Source: a phage
Length of the DNA: 64,000 bases
Sequence record: PZ445487.1
Direction: 5' to 3' (one strand)
A program made the translations under genes and the position numbers. Below the pieces are notes generated by a model that had not been told where the DNA came from, ran no database searches, and was given only the letters and a program-made list of their open reading frames with translations. Positions 34,145 through 40,534 of the stretch are shown piece after piece. Numbering within the stretch: the first letter of the stretch is position 1; each line of letters begins with the position of its first letter.

Positions 34145-34834
34145 ATGAAACGTTTAATCATCGGGGTTGTGCTGGCTGGTCTGGCACTTCCTGCCACCGC
34201 CAAGCTGAATTCCACGGGTGAAAAACTGTGGTCTGATCTTTCCTACTGTGCTGGGTTCTCCCAAGCCGTCGCTATAGACAAAACTGGTTCCATAGAGAAC
34301 TTTGCTGAACTCTGGACCACAGGTAATGTCACAGATGCCGTTGTAAATGCTGGTATTGAGTTTAATCGATATAAGCAAGGCGCGTTCAACCTGAAAGGAT
34401 ATATGAACGACAAAGAATTTAACCGAGGAGGCATGGAGGCGAGCGATCTTATTATGACTGGTCGTATGGGCACACAAGGACGAATGACCGTAAGACAGTG
34501 CCGTTCTCTTCCTTCTCCAGCATTACAAAAAGGTGTGCAGGTTGGCCGACGTCAGCTGGATCTCATCAATGATGGCAACCAATGTATCCGAGTATTTGAA
34601 TACAGTGCTGATCAAGAATCAGATCGACGTTTGAAAAAGGAATGGCGGACTCGCGCCCTTGGCCTGAGAGCATGGCTGGTGGAAAATGATCATTATTATG
34701 AAGACCGTGTTCAGAATGGTTTGAAAGATCTTTCCACTAATTTGTCTGTCAATCTTGATGATCCCAGGCTTGCCCGTGAACTCAAGCAAACAAGAATTGA
34801 CTGTGATAATATGATGAAGGAGAACGAAAGATGA
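34145..34834 (+). CDS. Secreted/periplasmic hypothetical protein
   Basis: SD aaggag; N-terminal signal peptide MKRLIIGVVLAGLALPATA. Confidence 0.5.
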   Translation: MKRLIIGVVLAGLALPATAKLNSTGEKLWSDLSYCAGFSQAVAIDKTGSIENFAELWTTGNVTDAVVNAGIEFNRYKQGAFNLKGYMNDKEFNRGGMEASDLIMTGRMGTQGRMTVRQCRSLPSPALQKGVQVGRRQLDLINDGNQCIRVFEYSADQESDRRLKKEWRTRALGLRAWLVENDHYYEDRVQNGLKDLSTNLSVNLDDPRLARELKQTRIDCDNMMKENER

Positions 34835-35151
34835 GAAACATAATATTCTTGTTATTCTTTTCTATGTTGGCATCATTCCAAGTTGTGGCAACTCCGGCTA
34901 GCAAATTGAATATGTGTGCGGCCTGGTTGTCTACTTATCAACAATTTCACCCTGATGATAAAGATACATCCATCCTTTTATCAGATTATGAAGGTGAGTT
35001 GAAACGCCTTGATCTCTACAGCGTGGATCAAATAGAGAATGCTTTGGATTTGCCAATGATGGAGTCCGCTGCCGACAATAGCAAACAGACGATCAAAGAT
35101 CTGACTATGTGTCGGGAAATAGCGACTAATTTCGTTGGAAATCAAAGATAA
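34831..35151 (+). CDS. Small secreted hypothetical protein
   Basis: ATGA overlap with the preceding gene; signal peptide MRNIIFLLFFSMLASFQVVA. Confidence 0.45.
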   Translation: MRNIIFLLFFSMLASFQVVATPASKLNMCAAWLSTYQQFHPDDKDTSILLSDYEGELKRLDLYSVDQIENALDLPMMESAADNSKQTIKDLTMCREIATNFVGNQR

Positions 35152-35201: not shown

Positions 35202-35993
35202 ATGATTATTACCAAAAAGATCGCCGAATCGATCATTGAAAAGAATAAGATGTTCGCGCCCAACAAAGCAAAGGTCATTCTGATTCACGAAGACGGACGC
35301 GTCATCTTCGCTGAAAAGTTCGAGCAGGGTTGTGCTTTCTGGTTCGCAGACACTATGCGCGAAAGCAAGCTGCAGGGCATCATCTATAAACTGACTCTGG
35401 TTGCCAAGCGCAATGATCAGGGTGATTGGGTTACGGTTTGTGATTTCAGCTCCAAGGTTGATACTCGACCAAAATCTCGCCAAGAGAGAATTCTGGAAGC
35501 TCAGGAAAAACTTGTTGCTGCTCGTACTTCACCAGTCGTTAAGCCCGCAGTCATCTCCCCTTCTATTGATCTGCCGCCTGTCAGCCAAAAGGCTGTTGAG
35601 CAATATGCAGAAAAACGAAAAGAAGAACCCGTGAAGTCTCCAGTTGAGAATAAAGAAGAATCTGAATTTATTTCAATCAGGCAATTATGCCCGCAAGAAA
35701 GGCGATTTTCTTCACCAAATGATTTATTCGTGTCTTTCCGGTCTAATGGGAAGATTATATTGTGCAAAACCCTACGGGAACAATTGCAGTGGCCTAACAT
35801 CAATATGATGGTGAGTCGGAACTTCAAACGATTCGCAATCGGTGAAGGTAAAGATTATCCTGTTAATAAGAGCGGAACATATGCAAATCGTCATATGTGC
35901 GACAAATTGTCTTTCCCAAACGATTCTGGCACTATTCGTGTTCGTTTAGAATGGGATGAAAGTTTGAACATGTATGTCGGTGATATAAAATAA
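35202..35993 (+). CDS. Hypothetical protein (263 aa)
   Basis: Preceded by a leader related to the conserved one (gaaaggaaatacttc). Confidence 0.5.
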   Translation: MIITKKIAESIIEKNKMFAPNKAKVILIHEDGRVIFAEKFEQGCAFWFADTMRESKLQGIIYKLTLVAKRNDQGDWVTVCDFSSKVDTRPKSRQERILEAQEKLVAARTSPVVKPAVISPSIDLPPVSQKAVEQYAEKRKEEPVKSPVENKEESEFISIRQLCPQERRFSSPNDLFVSFRSNGKIILCKTLREQLQWPNINMMVSRNFKRFAIGEGKDYPVNKSGTYANRHMCDKLSFPNDSGTIRVRLEWDESLNMYVGDIK

Positions 35994-36050
35994 TTCAATA
36001 ACATTAGGGCGGTTATTATTAAACCGCCTTTTATTTGAGAGATCTATATT

Positions 36051-36719
36051 ATGAACAACAAGAGCCGTATTATCATCGGGGCTGACCAGGGTAATTTATA
36101 TTTTGAAAGATCTGGTGTTGTCGCCCACGCTATCCTTCCCACTGGAATTTCCGTTTATTGTGTGGAACATCCTGACCCTGCAGTTAAACGTCTTTGCTAT
36201 GTCTCCCGTGAAAATGGACTAATTGTATTGCCAGAAGGCGCGATTATGCGCGCTCGTTTTTGGCCGATCGATTTTAATTCCATGAGCAATAGGGAGATCG
36301 ACGCCCGTTTCTTCGTACATAATATGAACCGGACTCTGAAAAATGAAACTCAGAGAGTTGTTCATTTCGACAATGAAACTCATGGAGTGACGTTAGAATT
36401 CAGAACTCGTGGTGAAGCTCTTCAGGTGAAGAAATCAAGCTGGAAAACTGAAGGGACGTTCACATATGATTATGCGTTAATCGACAAATTGTGTAATCAG
36501 TTTCGCATTAGCCTGACTGCCAACGACGATTTAGGTCAGTATGTTGTATGGACAGCCCGTTCACCACATATGAACGGTATCATGATGGAGAGTGAAACTC
36601 GTAATCGCGCTGTGCTCCAACTGCTGCTGTTAGACGCGTATTCTCGCAACCCGTTGGAATATCTGTCTCGGGAACAGATTGATAACGCGCTTTCTCATTG
36701 TAACCGTCTGGAGGTGTAA
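36051..36719 (+). CDS. Hypothetical protein (222 aa)
   Basis: ORF with no recognisable motif. Confidence 0.5.
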   Translation: MNNKSRIIIGADQGNLYFERSGVVAHAILPTGISVYCVEHPDPAVKRLCYVSRENGLIVLPEGAIMRARFWPIDFNSMSNREIDARFFVHNMNRTLKNETQRVVHFDNETHGVTLEFRTRGEALQVKKSSWKTEGTFTYDYALIDKLCNQFRISLTANDDLGQYVVWTARSPHMNGIMMESETRNRAVLQLLLLDAYSRNPLEYLSREQIDNALSHCNRLEV

Positions 36720-36720
36720 T

Positions 36721-37008
36721 ATGTCCGGCGTATGGTGTGATGTATTGTTGGTAAGATTTTCAAACGGGATGGATAATCAGATCATTTCATTCTTTTATCC
36801 TGTTCCCTTTTCTTCTATGGGTCTGACTGTCAAGCGCGTTCTTGACATAGAAGAAAAACTCAACACGATGCCGTATATGGCGCGACCACACGTGCTGGGT
36901 TGTGAACTGTTAAACGAAATGATGATTGACGAGAATCTTGTTGAAACAATTATCACGCGTGAACAGATGAAAACCATACTGTCTCAGGGAGAACCCCATG
37001 TCGAATAA
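36721..37008 (+). CDS. Hypothetical protein (95 aa)
   Basis: ATG immediately after the preceding stop. Confidence 0.4.
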   Translation: MSGVWCDVLLVRFSNGMDNQIISFFYPVPFSSMGLTVKRVLDIEEKLNTMPYMARPHVLGCELLNEMMIDENLVETIITREQMKTILSQGEPHVE

Positions 37009-37318
37009 ACCGTTTGAACTTAAATTTCGCGTTTGGCATATTCCCCAGGTTCCTGGGATCGCTTTTCATGTTGAGGTTCCAACATTTGAAGAAGCGCAGC
37101 GCCTGAAGAATACTCTGGCTGATTATGATTTGTTCCAGTTCAACAACAATATCAAGCCGGATTATTGTAATGCTTCGGGCATTCAGATTTATCAACATGA
37201 TCTGACTGAAGAAGATCTAAATGATATGGGACTGGATGATCGTTGGGTTGATATCGAAGATATTGACGAACTCAACGATTATTTTGATCATCTGCGTAGC
37301 ACAGGGTGGGAAATATGA
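36998..37318 (+). CDS. Hypothetical acidic protein (106 aa)
   Basis: ORF overlapping neighbouring gene ends; Asp/Glu-rich C-terminus. Confidence 0.45.
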   Translation: MSNKPFELKFRVWHIPQVPGIAFHVEVPTFEEAQRLKNTLADYDLFQFNNNIKPDYCNASGIQIYQHDLTEEDLNDMGLDDRWVDIEDIDELNDYFDHLRSTGWEI

Positions 37319-37524
37319 TCGGGTTAATCCGTTATCTGTTCATATTCGTAATAACAACATTCATTTTATTTTTCTTTTTCAAATACTTGAAAGAGACTAA
37401 AATCTACCGGAGTAAACGTTGGCGCAAACGGGTGAGGGTAACTTTCCTACTGCTGATTTCTTCGGTTACAATAACTGCACTCACATTGGGTGCTTATATT
37501 TACATTTTTGAAGGAGTACATTGA
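37315..37524 (+). CDS. Small membrane protein (69 aa, two predicted TM segments)
   Basis: Hydrophobic stretches LIRYLFIFVITTFILFFFF and FLLLISSVTITALTLGAYIYIF; overlaps the downstream SPFH gene start. Confidence 0.4.
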   Translation: MIGLIRYLFIFVITTFILFFFFKYLKETKIYRSKRWRKRVRVTFLLLISSVTITALTLGAYIYIFEGVH

Positions 37525-38315
37525 TGTTCAAGAAACTGGTATTTGGCGCAATTATGGTCCTAGCGGCAAGCCTTCTTTCAGGCTGCGGCGGTGTTATCGA
37601 TGAAGGAAACGTCGGTGTTCGAACCCAATGGGGTGAAGTGGACATGAACCCTGTAACCGCAGGTATCTACACCAGTTTCGTTTCAAGTGTAGATGTCTAT
37701 ACGACTAAAGAAGCCGTCGTGAGTCTGACGAAAATGACGCCAAAGGCCAAAGACAACCTGACCTTGGAAGATCTGGATGTGGACGTTTATTACACACCGA
37801 ACGTCGCGAAGGTTCCTTGGTTCCATACCAAATTTGCAGGTCAGAGCGCTGAACTCGGTGACGGCACGATAGCGGTGGGATTCAACCTGGTTAAAACCGC
37901 CGCAGCATCCTCAACGATGGACGCCGTTTCTTCTTTGGATTCTATGACAATTCACACCCAACGGGCTGAGTTAGAAAAGATGATCAAGGAACGCACCCAG
38001 CAGCAATTAGAAACAGCTGCACCTGGCATGTTCACAATCACACGCGTGTTGGTCAAAAAGGCGCTGACAGATCCTTCGATTGAGCAATCTATCCGTGATA
38101 ATGTCATGGCCGACAAACGTTTGGATACAGCAAGAAAGAACGTTGAAATTCGCGACCAAGAAGCCAAGGCGAATCAGAAACTGACGACATCTCTGACACC
38201 TGAATATTTACAACACGAATATAACATGGTGTTGCAATCTTGCGCCAACAGCGGGAAATGTACTCTGATTGTTGATGGTTCAGGCTCAAGTAAAATGCTA
38301 AACGTCGGCAAATAA
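37521..38315 (+). CDS. Lipoprotein with SPFH/band-7-like domain
   Basis: Lipoprotein signal MMFKKLVFGAIMVLAASLLSGC; then IDEGNVGVRTQWGEV, resembling the start of SPFH domains; helical C-terminus. Confidence 0.5.
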   Translation: MMFKKLVFGAIMVLAASLLSGCGGVIDEGNVGVRTQWGEVDMNPVTAGIYTSFVSSVDVYTTKEAVVSLTKMTPKAKDNLTLEDLDVDVYYTPNVAKVPWFHTKFAGQSAELGDGTIAVGFNLVKTAAASSTMDAVSSLDSMTIHTQRAELEKMIKERTQQQLETAAPGMFTITRVLVKKALTDPSIEQSIRDNVMADKRLDTARKNVEIRDQEAKANQKLTTSLTPEYLQHEYNMVLQSCANSGKCTLIVDGSGSSKMLNVGK

Positions 38316-38398
38316 ACGCTTTATTCAATAATATTTGTTAGGTAAGCTGTAGTCCTCTTGTAGTGAAACATTGTAAACAACTAACTGGAGTAATCCGA

Positions 38399-38677
38399 AT
38401 GAACCGTACTGATTTTATTGCTCACATCGCCCAGACTCAGGGTATGACCAAAGGCGAAGCTGAGAAAATCGTTGCATCTTTTATCAATGGCGTGAAAACT
38501 GCAGTCGCGGCTGGCCAATCTGTCCAATTCGTAGGCTTCGGCGCGTTCGAAGTTAAACATCAGGAAGCGCGCACTGGCCGCAACCCGCTGAACGGACAAC
38601 AGATCCAGATCGAAGCGAAAAATGTAGTTAAATTCAAAGTCGGTGAAGGTCTGAAAGCTGCTGCCAACGGCCAGTAA
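38399..38677 (+). CDS. HU/IHF-family DNA-binding protein
   Basis: MNRTDFIAHIA...GEAEKIV..F...QFVGFGAFEVKHQEARTGRNPLNGQQIQIEAKNVVKFKVGEGLK matches the HU consensus including the RNP arm; SD ggag. Confidence 0.8.
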   Translation: MNRTDFIAHIAQTQGMTKGEAEKIVASFINGVKTAVAAGQSVQFVGFGAFEVKHQEARTGRNPLNGQQIQIEAKNVVKFKVGEGLKAAANGQ

Positions 38678-38737
38678 TCACACCAGGCGTCGGCCCAGCG
38701 CATGTCTGCAGTGCAGCGGCGCAAGGCTAAAAGGAGA

Positions 38738-38765
38738 AGCCGAGGTTAATGCCTCGGCTTTTTCG
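38738..38765 (+). terminator. Rho-independent terminator after the HU gene
   Basis: agccgagg-ttaat-gcctcggct followed by ttttt. Confidence 0.6.
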
Positions 38766-38812
38766 TTGTTGGGATTCGGGTAAACTATAACAGAATCCAA
38801 AGGAGGAACAAC

Positions 38813-40534
38813 GTGACAGCATTTAATCAACACCGAAAGGCGATTGACGCCATAGGCCGTAAGGTTCCTGTGGAAGAAATACAACGCCTTACCAAAGATG
38901 AATTCCCATATGACAAAGCGAACCCAGGCCAGATGGAATGCATCGTCGAAGCCATAGATGCGCTTATCAACAAAAAGGTTAAACATGTCATCATTGAAGC
39001 TCCGACAGGTGTCGGTAAATCTTTGATTGGCACTACCATTCATAAAGTGATTCGCCATCTAGTTTTACAGGCTGATCCTTATGGGCAATTTCGCACTTCT
39101 ATCAGCACCCCGACCAAAGGTCTGCAAGATCAGTATGCTGCTGAAAAGGCGGTGGCGATAGACATCCTAAAAGGCAAGAAGAACTATCGTTGCCACGTAC
39201 ATCCAGATGTGTATTACAATGCTGTCCAATGCCGTATAGCATGCCGTGACGGGCATTGTAGCAAACGCCGCTGTCCTTATGTACAGGCGCGTAATTTGTG
39301 GACGGATATTTCATCATTGCGTTGTACTAATGCTGCCATGATGATCGAAATGTGTACAACCATCTGCATGAAGCCCGAAAACCGTTCCGATATGCTGATC
39401 CTTGACGAGTGCCATAAAATGCCCTCTACGCTCCTAGAGCACACGATCATGGAATACAATACAAAGGCCGTGGAGGGGCTGCGTTCTATCCCTGAGGGCA
39501 AGGAGATCGTCTCTACCATTGGTGATATCGTAGAACGCACCAAGGACTATGTCCTGGGCAAGTTATATTCTTTGTCTGGTGAACTGCATTCAATGTTTGA
39601 AGCCCTCCATCTCAAAGTAGAAAATTTGTTGGAAGTTCTTGAAGAATTGGTCGAAGATGATCGCTTGAGTGAAAGCCAAGTGATGAAACTCGCCGACATT
39701 ATAGATGTCTTGCATAACTTGAGTGATTATTGCGGTATTATGTCACAAACCCAAGCAAGTACATTTATTGTGCAAGATAAGGGGGAAGATTTTATCCGGT
39801 TTAAACCTGTTATGCCTTCTGATGTAAGCGAATTCGGGTTATTCCGAAAAGCCGATTATCACGTTCATATGTCAGCAACGATCTGTGGTATAGATTCATA
39901 TGCTCGTTCATTGGGTATTCGACAGGGGGATTATCATTCCATTCAGATCGGCAACCCTATCCCGATTGAAAACAGAAAAGTCAACTATATGCCCATAGTG
40001 AAGATGACTAACAATATGGGTGACTATGAAATGAAAAGGTTGACGGAATATATTGATGAAATAATCGCGTTCCACCCAGGTCAGTCCGGCATTATCCATA
40101 CAGTGAGTTATGATCGCGCCTTGGCAATACAAAAATTCAGCAAATATCAGAATTTTATCCATGTTCCGCGTACCCGAAAGGCGTTGATGGATATTATGGA
40201 AAATGCTTTTAGAACAAAGTCCCCATGCGTCATTGCCAGTCCGGCTATGGAAGAAGGTTATGATTTCAAAGGGGATTACAGCCGTTTCCAAATACTGATC
40301 AAAGTCCCTTATGATTATCTGGGCGATCCACTGATAGCACATATCAATTCAGTGGATCCGTCGGCATACTTCCGCAATGCAGTACTGCGCATTGTTCAAA
40401 TGTGTGGACGTTCGGTCAGGGGTGTTGATGACTGGGCTGCGACATACATCATTGATTCATCCTTTGAATCTCTTATGATGCGCAACCCAGAATTCTTCCC
40501 AACCTGGTTCACCGATGCAGTGTTTGAGGTTTAA
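38813..40534 (+). CDS. DinG/XPD-family (Rad3-like) FeS helicase
   Basis: GTG start with SD aaggagga; Walker A EAPTGVGKS, DECH box ILDECHK, four Cys between helicase motifs (CHVHPD...C...CRDGHC...RRCPY), motif VI GRSVRG. Confidence 0.7.
   Translation: MTAFNQHRKAIDAIGRKVPVEEIQRLTKDEFPYDKANPGQMECIVEAIDALINKKVKHVIIEAPTGVGKSLIGTTIHKVIRHLVLQADPYGQFRTSISTPTKGLQDQYAAEKAVAIDILKGKKNYRCHVHPDVYYNAVQCRIACRDGHCSKRRCPYVQARNLWTDISSLRCTNAAMMIEMCTTICMKPENRSDMLILDECHKMPSTLLEHTIMEYNTKAVEGLRSIPEGKEIVSTIGDIVERTKDYVLGKLYSLSGELHSMFEALHLKVENLLEVLEELVEDDRLSESQVMKLADIIDVLHNLSDYCGIMSQTQASTFIVQDKGEDFIRFKPVMPSDVSEFGLFRKADYHVHMSATICGIDSYARSLGIRQGDYHSIQIGNPIPIENRKVNYMPIVKMTNNMGDYEMKRLTEYIDEIIAFHPGQSGIIHTVSYDRALAIQKFSKYQNFIHVPRTRKALMDIMENAFRTKSPCVIASPAMEEGYDFKGDYSRFQILIKVPYDYLGDPLIAHINSVDPSAYFRNAVLRIVQMCGRSVRGVDDWAATYIIDSSFESLMMRNPEFFPTWFTDAVFEV

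Follow-up and report, generated by a model that had tools for sequence, protein, structure and literature searches.

A gene for a small two-helix membrane protein accompanies the SPFH lipoprotein gene of Escherichia phage CBA120 and recurs at this position in divergent phages

Many large phages and giant viruses carry SPFH/Band-7 genes, and, to our knowledge, every solved SPFH protein oligomerises into a ring or cage. Among virulent phages, the small two-transmembrane (two-TM) proteins or lipoproteins T4 Imm and Sp, T5 Llp, and Cor are early-expressed envelope proteins. In the SPFH-NfeD operons (QmcA-YbbJ, YqiJ-YqiK, YuaF-FloT, and PH1510-PH1511), an SPFH gene is coupled to a neighbouring gene that encodes a small membrane protein, and the Bacillus subtilis SPFH protein YdjI, which has no TM helix of its own, is recruited by the membrane proteins YdjG and YdjH (PMC8581546). 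The assignment "SPFH domain/Band 7" was given in 2011 to the PhiSH19 counterpart of orf126, the phage gene analysed here (PMC3220722). The SPFH/lipoprotein annotation of orf126 is not new, having been published for Vi01-like phages since that year. What is new, as judged from sequence comparison, is a conserved upstream gene for a two-TM partner, seen in numerous large phages but with only 1 of 80 bacterial homologues. We know of no report on phage SPFH/Band-7 proteins that describes such a partner.

The window (the whole analysed stretch of 64,000 nucleotides, sequence record PZ445487.1) originates from Escherichia phage CBA120 (Kuttervirus). The two open reading frames of interest are the RefSeq coding sequences orf127A and orf126 of this phage (NC_016570), and the features of the locus are as follows.

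36051-37318, plus strand: orf130, orf129 (DUF7425), and orf127 (gp17-like), the co-oriented and tightly packed genes forming the context of the pair
37315-37318, plus strand: ATGA start/stop overlap between orf127 (36998-37318) and orf127A, read from the sequence
37315-37524, plus strand: orf127A, defined by its ORF and translation, RefSeq CDS, PHROG 11680, hydropathy and charge, and positional conservation
37510-37526, plus strand: putative coupling signal read from the sequence, comprising the strong Shine-Dalgarno motif GAAGGAG (37510-37516) and the TGATG stop/start (37522-37526)
37524-38315, plus strand: orf126, a 263-aa SPFH/Band-7 lipoprotein according to Pfam, PHROG 200, AlphaFold2, and Foldseek
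37524-37586, plus strand: predicted lipoprotein signal peptide (residues 1-20) and lipobox L-S-G-C, with the Cys21 codon at 37584-37586, read from the sequence
37593-38150, plus strand: Band_7/SPFH domain, residues 24-209 (Pfam envelope; AlphaFold2 core 22-182)
38073-38249, plus strand: predicted coiled-coil-type helices 184-223 and 226-242 (AlphaFold2 secondary structure and full-length Foldseek)
38241-38261, plus strand: conserved Cys pair C240/C246 (CAxxxxC), a candidate periplasmic disulfide, from the Cys positions

The preliminary description of this locus had placed here a gene for a 69-aa two-TM protein overlapping a downstream lipoprotein gene. Its coordinates are right, and the small gene is borne out by hydropathy and by the RefSeq annotation. 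The overlap is 1 base, the A common to the orf127A stop codon TGA (37522-37524) and the orf126 start codon ATG (37524-37526), and these signals indicate that the two genes are translationally coupled. The product of orf127, located 5' of orf127A, is similar to P22 gp17 (PF17420 GP17, E=9e-50). Since a terminator-like hairpin (36006-36030) and promoter-like sites (35964-35994) precede the tightly packed, co-oriented genes from orf130 onward, the orf127A/orf126 pair probably lies at the distal end of the orf130-orf127 transcription unit. The neighbouring genes have early/replication functions (gp17-like, HU, helicase, RNA ligase, RNase T, and rIIB); no usable literature on the timing of CBA120 transcription was found.

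The N-terminus of the orf126 product, MFKKLVFGAIMVLAASLLSG|C21, comprises a basic n-region, a hydrophobic core, and a canonical L-S-G-C lipobox (pattern used: [LVI][ASTVI][GAS]C), and the mature product has 242 aa. A lipobox Cys occurs at the same junction in 65 of the 79 unique family members, and a C-x5-7-C motif in 49 of the 79. The protein matched Pfam Band_7 (PF01145) over residues 24-209 with E=1.2e-12 and 48.7 bits (cut-off 23.6), as well as PHROG 200 "lipoprotein" with E=1e-57. In the AlphaFold2 monomer model (pLDDT 85.2), the SPFH alpha/beta core (22-182) is followed by a 40-residue helix (184-223), a second helix (226-242), and C-terminal strands. The model thus presents a complete SPFH architecture of core, coiled-coil helices, and C-terminal strands. 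In solved SPFH cages, the equivalents of these helices build the wall and cap. The lipobox and the SPFH identity proposed in the preliminary description stand, with a signal peptide ending LSG|C21 and a Band_7 profile match above the cut-off that is supported by the fold. Its restriction to an "SPFH-like N-terminal core" does not, as the AlphaFold2 model and Foldseek point to the full architecture from residue 22 to the C-terminus.

Foldseek searches with orf126 gave full-length alignments to prohibitin, erlin, HflK/C, stomatin, and QmcA, all with probability 1.0. PDB sequence searches gave no match with either the single sequence or a 31-sequence profile, so the structural relatives of orf126 were reached by fold search alone. 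Only noise-level matches were obtained in NCBIfam, with no HflK/HflC at E<=1 and no QmcA model. The top Foldseek matches include the HflK/C-FtsH structures 9cz2, 7vhq, and 7wi3, and orf126 might accordingly mimic HflK/C, its periplasmic cage capturing or shielding FtsH or another membrane protease and thereby stabilising phage membrane proteins or rewiring envelope quality control. The predicted periplasmic orientation is that of HflK/C, SPFH proteins are recurrently tied to membrane AAA proteases (PMC12624060), and some source databases label orf126 homologues "regulator of protease activity HflC." However, structure-based identity to HflK/C in the Foldseek alignments is just 12%-19%, the family-level and PDB sequence searches were empty as described above, and the CBA120 locus has one SPFH gene instead of a heterodimeric pair. 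Moreover, prohibitin and erlin match orf126 equally well or better, and the fold therefore does not single out FtsH binding. Such mimicry appears unlikely.

The 69-aa orf127A product contains two TM helices predicted from hydropathy (TM1, ~4-21; TM2, ~42-59, possibly to ~65). The loop between them (22-41) carries 10 K/R with a net charge of +9, and the C-terminal tail ends FEGVH, features that characterize the protein as a hairpin of two helices joined by a strongly basic loop. It matched PHROG 11680 with E=2e-46. Sequence search revealed just three close relatives, and tblastn matches were limited to Kuttervirus; wider conservation could therefore be shown only through position and architecture. 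Neither orf127A nor orf126 matched the PADLOC-DB defence-system models at E<=1.

Outside Kuttervirus, an ORF of 53-69 aa encoding two TM helices was located directly upstream of the SPFH gene, ending -4 to +28 nt from its start, in 23 of 27 divergent non-redundant loci. For the remaining ORFs in these loci that reach 150 aa or more, the same arrangement was seen in 8 of 171 cases (Fisher p ~2e-19, a value overstated because the compared loci are related to each other). The pairing does not, on these counts, reflect chance juxtaposition, although in compact phage genomes adjacency can persist without direct interaction of the products. In locus L033, the two-TM partner was found one gene further upstream, and Acinetobacter T4-like and N4-like phages have a different small membrane protein at the partner position. 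The partners have almost no common sequence, with just 8%-28% identity to orf127A. Among 27 partners, the loop is net positive in all, K/R is present near the N-terminus in 26, and an acidic residue lies within the last 7 residues in 23; the tail after TM2 has a net charge of -1 to +1. Close members of the orf126 family among phage records were confined to Kuttervirus and Erwinia Nezavisimistyvirus phages, and weaker matches (<60% identity) came from Acinetobacter, Synechococcus, and Burkholderia phages. The module is present in phages of enterobacteria and Erwinia, in Burkholderia-associated contigs, and in soil and water metagenomes.

The size and two-TM layout of the partner are pinholin-like, and the pair could belong to the lysis machinery, with orf127A as a class II holin/pinholin or antiholin and orf126 as a spanin-like or lysis-regulating protein. 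One of 25 partners weakly matched a holin family (E=0.03), and the product of orf133, 2 kb upstream, is labelled "Rz-like spanin" by PHROG, but orf133 has a cleavable-type signal peptide and not an Rz-type anchor. The early/replication neighbours (gp17-like, HU, and helicase) include no endolysin, the partner has a basic loop and no charged cytoplasmic C-tail, and the mature orf126 product is a globular SPFH protein, compared with the ~60-aa proline-rich o-spanins. Furthermore, there are viable isolates with deletions of both genes. In phage GG32, an in-frame deletion has left a fusion in which codon 17 from the small gene is followed directly by the final 66 codons from the SPFH gene. The partial-match pattern of GG32 also occurs in SeHz-1 and STP55, and SenALZ1 has an orf131-orf126 fusion; from these sequence patterns, the pair is apparently deleted in all three. 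These natural deletions indicate that the orf127A/orf126 pair is dispensable. The lysis-cassette reading was rejected as very improbable on the grounds of context, architecture, and natural deletions, and both the lysis-timing role suggested in the preliminary description and a holin variant of this idea lose weight in view of the early genes nearby and the viable deletion variants.

Among 80 bacterial chromosomal homologues, a two-TM partner was found beside one, and this single case is phage-like. No conserved neighbour of the bacterial homologues was detected, since no family, NfeD included, occurred in more than 12 of the 80 loci. The absence of a conserved neighbour in bacterial members of the orf126 subfamily suggests that the pairing arose in phages. 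Of the bacterial relatives, 44 are TM-anchored, the anchor occupying the junction that holds the Cys in orf126; the helix ends exactly where the predicted lipidated Cys sits in orf126. The idea that the partner replaces a missing TM helix is weakened by 27 bacterial lipoprotein-type homologues that have no small partner at all. Standing in for the helix therefore does not fully explain the partner.

The preliminary description held that the pair mirrors bacterial stomatin/NfeD pairs. The parallel is correct as regards gene order, a small membrane protein gene followed by the SPFH gene, and the two genes stay linked across wide evolutionary distances; the parallel does not extend to NfeD homology. 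If orf127A/orf126 were truly homologous to the bacterial NfeD-SPFH pair (NfeD being the stomatin operon partner), the shared gene order would be expected, and the QmcA-YbbJ complex (8z5g) is indeed among the Foldseek matches of orf126. However, none of the 25 partners matched NfeD (PF01957) even at E<=10. The partners, 53-69 aa in length, consist of two TM helices only, and the 2-10 residues that follow make an OB-fold impossible. The lack of a conserved neighbour in the bacterial subfamily also speaks against common origin. Homology to the NfeD pair is thus effectively refuted and has only a minimal probability.

The membrane to which orf126 is sorted determines whether the two products could meet. 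The lipobox Cys is followed by two glycines (C-G-G), the +2 residue thus being Gly, and position +2 is occupied by G/F/Y/D in 54 of the 65 lipobox-bearing family members. In the work of Seydel et al. from 1999, Gly, Phe, Trp, Tyr, and Pro at +2 reportedly kept a reporter in the inner membrane. According to the canonical E. coli "+2 rule," it is Asp at this position that leads to inner-membrane retention (PMC9595528), and the rule consequently predicts outer-membrane sorting for orf126, which in this case could not touch the inner-membrane hairpin orf127A. The +2 Gly was nevertheless dropped as a sorting signal: the same Gly is conserved in the TM-anchored relatives and is therefore a structural residue carrying no evidence of a sorting function.

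Known phage exclusion factors, such as T5 Llp and Cor, are often early-expressed lipoproteins. As an outer-membrane lipoprotein exported by the Lol route that the canonical rule predicts, orf126 could act in Cor/Llp-style superinfection exclusion or receptor masking, or as a scaffold of the outer membrane or vesicles, while orf127A would have a separate or transient role (chaperone, sorting). An SPFH protein of a Pasteurella prophage, which need not belong to the orf126 family, has been recovered from outer-membrane vesicles (PMC9872710), and vesicle contamination would fit the detection of Sajous1 gp200 by mass spectrometry (3 peptides) at a low level in phage preparations. On the contrary, the 44 TM-anchored close bacterial relatives, with their anchor at the same junction, must be inner-membrane proteins, and if the two products ended up in different membranes, so tight and old a linkage of orf126 with an inner-membrane hairpin would be difficult to account for. 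Receptor-specific exclusion factors are usually narrow, whereas this module spans diverse hosts and metagenomes. We consider this outer-membrane role improbable, and orf126 probably resides in the inner membrane.

We are inclined, by a small measure, to regard orf127A and orf126 as a phage-specific accessory two-gene envelope module, and it is reasonably likely that its structural core is an SPFH ring with a hairpin partner, accessory in nature. The orf127A product would span the inner membrane twice, leaving the loop on the cytoplasmic side and the two short ends on the periplasmic side. ATP synthase subunit c has the same hairpin topology. The orf126 product would be exported, acquire a lipid at Cys21, and form a disulfide between C240 and C246; the conserved lipobox, the Cys pair, and the matching position of the TM anchor in relatives all favour export to the periplasm. 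Like solved SPFH proteins, it would form a ring or cage, located on the periplasmic side of the membrane, and the CC1-length regression of PMC12624060 applied to its 40-residue CC1 helix gives roughly 17 subunits. The hairpin could be a membrane-embedded partner or cargo of this ring and may hold the lipoprotein at the inner membrane. The most likely function of the module would be to condition or protect the inner membrane of the infected cell by controlling the exposure of the enclosed membrane patch.

As for the biological role, generic membrane integrity or prevention of premature permeabilisation can be proposed tentatively. A part in HflK/C-like regulation of FtsH or in other quality control is doubtful, as is, to the same degree, any other function, and superinfection exclusion at the DNA-entry step is unlikely. 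A mechanism tailored to one receptor is less likely, given how widely the hosts of phages with this module differ. More speculatively, large virulent phages may carry a dedicated two-component "periplasmic cage" system, in which a minimal hairpin was added to a stand-alone bacterial SPFH protein to wall off patches of the inner membrane. If true, this cage would be a previously unrecognised host-independent block on incoming DNA or defence effectors, or an FtsH cage, and orf127A-type hairpins would make up a class of SPFH partner that is new and distinct from NfeD. A partner that is conserved, specific to phages, and co-translated provides an experimental handle on viral SPFH function, with natural deletion variants available, and the pair, a 242-aa lipoprotein with a 69-aa hairpin, is a very small system for the study of SPFH rings and their clients. 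If the module protects the membrane or excludes phages, it bears on Kuttervirus biocontrol of Salmonella and E. coli O157.

Comparison with known systems showed that orf126 has the complete SPFH architecture of HflK/HflC and matches their fold strongly; in HflK/HflC, the anchor immediately precedes SPFH1 and the bulk of the protein lies in the periplasm, as predicted for orf126. On the other hand, HflK/HflC have an N-terminal TM helix and form a K/C heterodimer, while orf126 has a lipid anchor and is encoded by a single gene. The HflK/HflC coiled coil is much longer than the 40-aa CC1 helix of orf126, which, unlike HflK/HflC, has its own tiny hairpin partner and no match to their families. The SPFH-NfeD operons are similar in combining an SPFH ring with a dedicated membrane partner, and QmcA-YbbJ is a fold match, but the orf127A-type partner lacks the OB-fold and any detectable homology to NfeD (0/25). 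In the B. subtilis YdjG/YdjH-YdjI system (SamGHI), small membrane proteins of the same operon localise the SPFH protein, which is tied to protection from membrane stress (PMC8581546). YdjI is cytoplasmic and works with PspA, whereas orf126 is predicted to be exported and lipidated, and homology of the partners is not expected. Within phages, orf126 belongs to the known and widespread SPFH/Band-7 group that includes PHROG 200, ORFs of 44RR, Aeh1, and RB43 (T4-like phages), RaK2-like jumbo phages, and the N4-like GIB1. T4 Imm/Sp, T5 Llp, and Cor have no sequence or fold relationship to orf127A/orf126; they are small and host- or receptor-specific, while orf126 is a large scaffold conserved across hosts.

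Positions 36000–39000 were 100% identical to the reverse strand of phage CBA120 (Kuttervirus, Ackermannviridae; NC_016570/JN593240), and about 170 Kuttervirus records contained the region at 95%–100% identity. Two entries named for unrelated hosts, OR844945.1 ("Enterococcus phage Efm 3-10", 7.9 kb) and MN871475.1 ("Pseudomonas phage Pa-sanjiao"), contain Kuttervirus sequence with 98%–100% identity to the region of the pair and are probably mislabelled or contaminated. RefSeq lists the small gene of the pair, orf127A, as "hypothetical protein" and orf126 as "lipoprotein". The pair and its surroundings comprise the following features.

Features of the orf127A–orf126 region
34145–34834: orf135, cleavable-type signal peptide at its start
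34831–35151: orf133, cleavable-type signal peptide at its start; PHROG label "Rz-like spanin"
35964–35994: promoter-like sites before the run orf130–orf126
36006–36030: terminator-like hairpin before the same run
36998–37318: orf127, P22 gp17 homologue (PF17420, E = 9e-50), ATGA-coupled to the hairpin gene
37315–37524, + strand: orf127A (hairpin gene), 69 aa, hydrophobic segments at about 4–21 and 42–59
37524–38315, + strand: orf126 (SPFH lipoprotein gene), 263 aa, N-terminus MFKKLVFGAIMVLAASLLSG followed by C

The small two-TM gene that the preliminary description placed upstream of the lipoprotein gene was thus recovered, with two hydrophobic segments, and the overlap it described amounts to one base shared by the orf127A stop and the orf126 start (TGATG). 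A Shine-Dalgarno sequence, GAAGGAG, lies 7 nt upstream of the orf126 start region, and the orf127A start in turn overlaps orf127. The loop between the two hydrophobic segments contains 10 K/R residues and has a net charge of +9.

The orf126 product starts with a textbook lipoprotein signal peptide ending in the lipobox L-S-G-C, as had been claimed, and its SPFH identity was confirmed by the Pfam Band_7 profile (E = 1.2e-12, 48.7 bits; gathering cut-off, 23.6). The lack of profile support that the preliminary description had named as counting against its claim was therefore not observed. An AlphaFold2 model built from 31 homologues (mean pLDDT 85) comprised an alpha/beta core (residues 22–182), a 40-residue helix (184–223), a second helix (226–242), and short C-terminal strands. 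Foldseek matched the model over its full length, with probability 1.0, to PDB structures of the human prohibitin complex, erlin1/2, HflK/C-FtsH, stomatin, QmcA-YbbJ, flotillin, and major vault protein. The similarity is therefore not restricted to an N-terminal core, as first described, and the modelled architecture together with these matches argues for a complete cage-type SPFH protein. Sequence searches of the PDB with single or profile queries returned no match, and NCBIfam gave no HflK, HflC, or QmcA-type match, which places the protein in a divergent SPFH clade. When 1.84 billion representative proteins were searched with a profile, 126 clusters matched at E ≤ 1e-30, and the number rose to 498 at E ≤ 1e-10. 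Across the aligned family, the predicted lipidated Cys immediately precedes the first strand (C-G-G-V-I-D-E-G-N-V-G-V), leaving no tether; more distant relatives possess an N-terminal TM helix ending at the point where lipoprotein-type members have this Cys. In 49 of 79 family members, many of them lipoprotein-type, two Cys residues form a C-terminal CAxxxxC pair (C240 and C246 in orf126), which would fit an oxidising periplasmic location.

The SPFH annotation itself is not new. The 263-aa homologue of phage PhiSH19 was listed as "SPFH domain/Band 7 family" already in 2011 (PMC3220722), and several GenBank records name the orf126 homologue "SPFH domain band 7 family protein". SPFH ORFs were recorded in the T4-like phages 44RR, Aeh1, and RB43 in 2006 (PMC1524935) and in RaK2-like jumbo phages (PMC7760394), and SPFH folds occur in many phages and giant viruses (BFVD). 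According to a 2026 description of an N4-like phage that has such a gene, why a phage genome should contain it "remains unclear" (PMC13239085). The gene orf126 is known from phages and annotated there but uncharacterised, and the informative part of the locus is the pairing.

As a sequence query, orf127A retrieved close relatives only. Erwinia phage Bue1 (vB_EamM-Bue1, NC_048702) encodes an SPFH protein 53% identical to orf126, and upstream of this "lipoprotein" gene RefSeq shows a gap of about 650 nt without annotated genes. An unannotated 64-aa two-TM ORF (locus L003, 2804–2998) ends there on the A of the SPFH ATG, as in CBA120. Further contigs with this gene order were a soil phage contig of 174 kb, a Burkholderia gladioli contig of phage-like character, and several more from metagenomic phages. 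We gathered 29 IMG/VR loci and scored all loci with one script, defining a partner as a 53–69-aa ORF with two predicted TM helices ending at −4 to +28 nt of the SPFH start. Partners were present in 23 of 27 non-redundant loci outside Kuttervirus; when the remaining ORFs of these loci with a length of 150 aa or more served as controls, the figure was 8 of 171 (Fisher p ~2e-19, overstated because the loci are related). In one apparent exception, L033, the hairpin gene lies one gene further upstream; the others are Acinetobacter phage Ab15 and two TM-anchored forms. Acinetobacter phages AbTZA1 (T4-like) and XC38 (N4-like) encode a different, 87–90-aa membrane protein at the position of the partner.

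Despite 8%–28% identity to orf127A (75% and 67% for the two closest, P0060 and P0061), the partners keep one architecture. Twenty-six of the 27 have K/R close to the N-terminus, all 27 have a loop of net positive charge between TM1 and TM2, and the tail comprises 2–10 residues, with an acidic residue among the last seven in 23 of 27 (e.g., FEGVH, LESR, VDHIF, LERL). By the positive-inside rule, the loop would be cytoplasmic and both termini periplasmic, the same topology as in ATP synthase subunit c.

Bacterial relatives were scanned with one genome per species. The 80 chromosomal homologues (34%–43% identity to orf126), mostly from Beta- and Gammaproteobacteria, included 44 TM-anchored, 27 lipobox, and 9 unclear forms. 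A small two-TM gene adjoined only one of them, in Massilia, where it resembles the phage type, and no gene family neighboured more than 12 of the 80 loci. These counts indicate that bacterial SPFH homologues are stand-alone, periplasm-facing proteins to which phages added the hairpin partner. Metagenomic TM-anchored homologues have housekeeping genes as neighbours. The proposed equivalence to bacterial NfeD-type pairs did not hold: none of 25 partners matched NfeD (PF01957) at E ≤ 10, and the partners have no room for an OB-fold. As the bacterial relatives also lack the partner, common descent with NfeD-SPFH operons is ruled out. Phage-type pairs occur in two bacterial assemblies, in a 111-kb contig of Burkholderia gladioli (L007, GCA_048654765.1) among phage-like genes (RNA ligase, RNase T) and in a 113-kb contig of Massilia sp. 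TN1-12 (L044); both are likely phage, prophage, or phage-plasmid sequences and not chromosome.

In CBA120 the pair closes a tightly packed co-oriented run of orf130, orf129 (DUF7425), and orf127, and is followed by HU-like and helicase genes; in other phages, genes for RNA ligase, RNase T, or rIIB lie next to it. The surroundings are early or replication territory, and a lysis cassette was rejected as the setting. PADLOC returned no defence-system relationship for the pair. The signal peptides of orf135 and orf133 predict that exported proteins are also encoded upstream; the spanin label of orf133 looks doubtful since an Rz-type membrane anchor is missing. P22 gene 17 serves phage escape from a prophage exclusion system and is not known to exclude other phages, so the label "superinfection exclusion" on the gp17-like gene may be misleading. 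In Bue1, unlike CBA120, this gene is found downstream of the SPFH gene, two genes away. GG32 has an extra LysM-type gene (102 aa, no signal peptide; L126:2145–2453), absent from CBA120, between the gp17-like and hairpin genes; judged by position, it is probably what is labelled "LysM", "endolysin", or "peptidoglycan binding" in Matapan, ECML-4, SeSz-1, SP1, and AR2819. In a T4-like metagenomic contig (L009:1862–2827), an rIIB-family gene lies immediately upstream of the pair. The rII proteins are membrane-associated and protect against prophage-induced early lysis. In a metagenomic phage, the SPFH gene is adjoined by a gene (L008:2334–2549) for a small protein bearing the pilin-like motif for prokaryotic N-terminal methylation; by ORF numbering, this is also the case in Aeromonas phage 44RR (ORF097c/098c; PMC1524935). 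Such a protein may be a second recurrent neighbour.

Natural deletions show that the pair is dispensable. In Salmonella phage GG32 (KX245012; L126:2450–2701), an in-frame deletion joins codon 17 of the hairpin gene to the last 66 SPFH codons; SeHz-1 (MN871502) and STP55 (OM688977) have the same partial match (residues 198–263), the junction being read in GG32 only. In Salmonella phage SenALZ1, compared with window positions 35202–38315, a 209-aa protein (P0049) fuses the orf131 N-terminus (MIITKKIAE...) to the SPFH C-terminus, which implies that a deletion removed most of the SPFH gene and, upstream of it, orf130, orf129, and the gp17-like and hairpin genes. Thus, the whole block from orf130 to the SPFH gene appears dispensable. 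Because phages of unrelated hosts share the module and can do without it in the laboratory, we favour generic envelope conditioning and regard a receptor-specific exclusion factor as less probable; superinfection exclusion acting at the step of DNA entry is a possible role. Envelope conditioning could consist in maintaining membrane integrity or preventing premature permeabilisation, or in regulating access to a patch of the membrane, perhaps with FtsH involved.

We take the gene coupling, lipoprotein signal, full SPFH fold, hairpin partner, phage-specific linkage, and accessory status as established. The orf126 lipoprotein would be exported, acylated, and assembled into a ring of about 17 subunits, as calculated for a 40-residue CC1 (first coiled-coil helix) with the published linear fit of subunit number to CC1 length (y = 0.1782x + 10.22; PMC12624060). 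The hairpin would be a membrane-embedded partner or cargo of this ring in the inner membrane. The main uncertainty about the lipoprotein is its membrane of residence: its C-G-G has no Asp at +2, the canonical retention signal (PMC9595528), and the inner membrane is rather probable because of the TM-anchored relatives and the inner-membrane partner. A precedent for an SPFH protein with small membrane partners is Bacillus subtilis YdjI, which depends on YdjG/H, small membrane proteins encoded in its operon (PMC8581546). Overall, the preliminary description was confirmed in what it observed and supported in part in how it read the pair. A hairpin partner of this kind, conserved, specific to phages, and not of the NfeD type, appears not to have been reported so far, which would make the pair a new variation on the theme of SPFH plus membrane partner.
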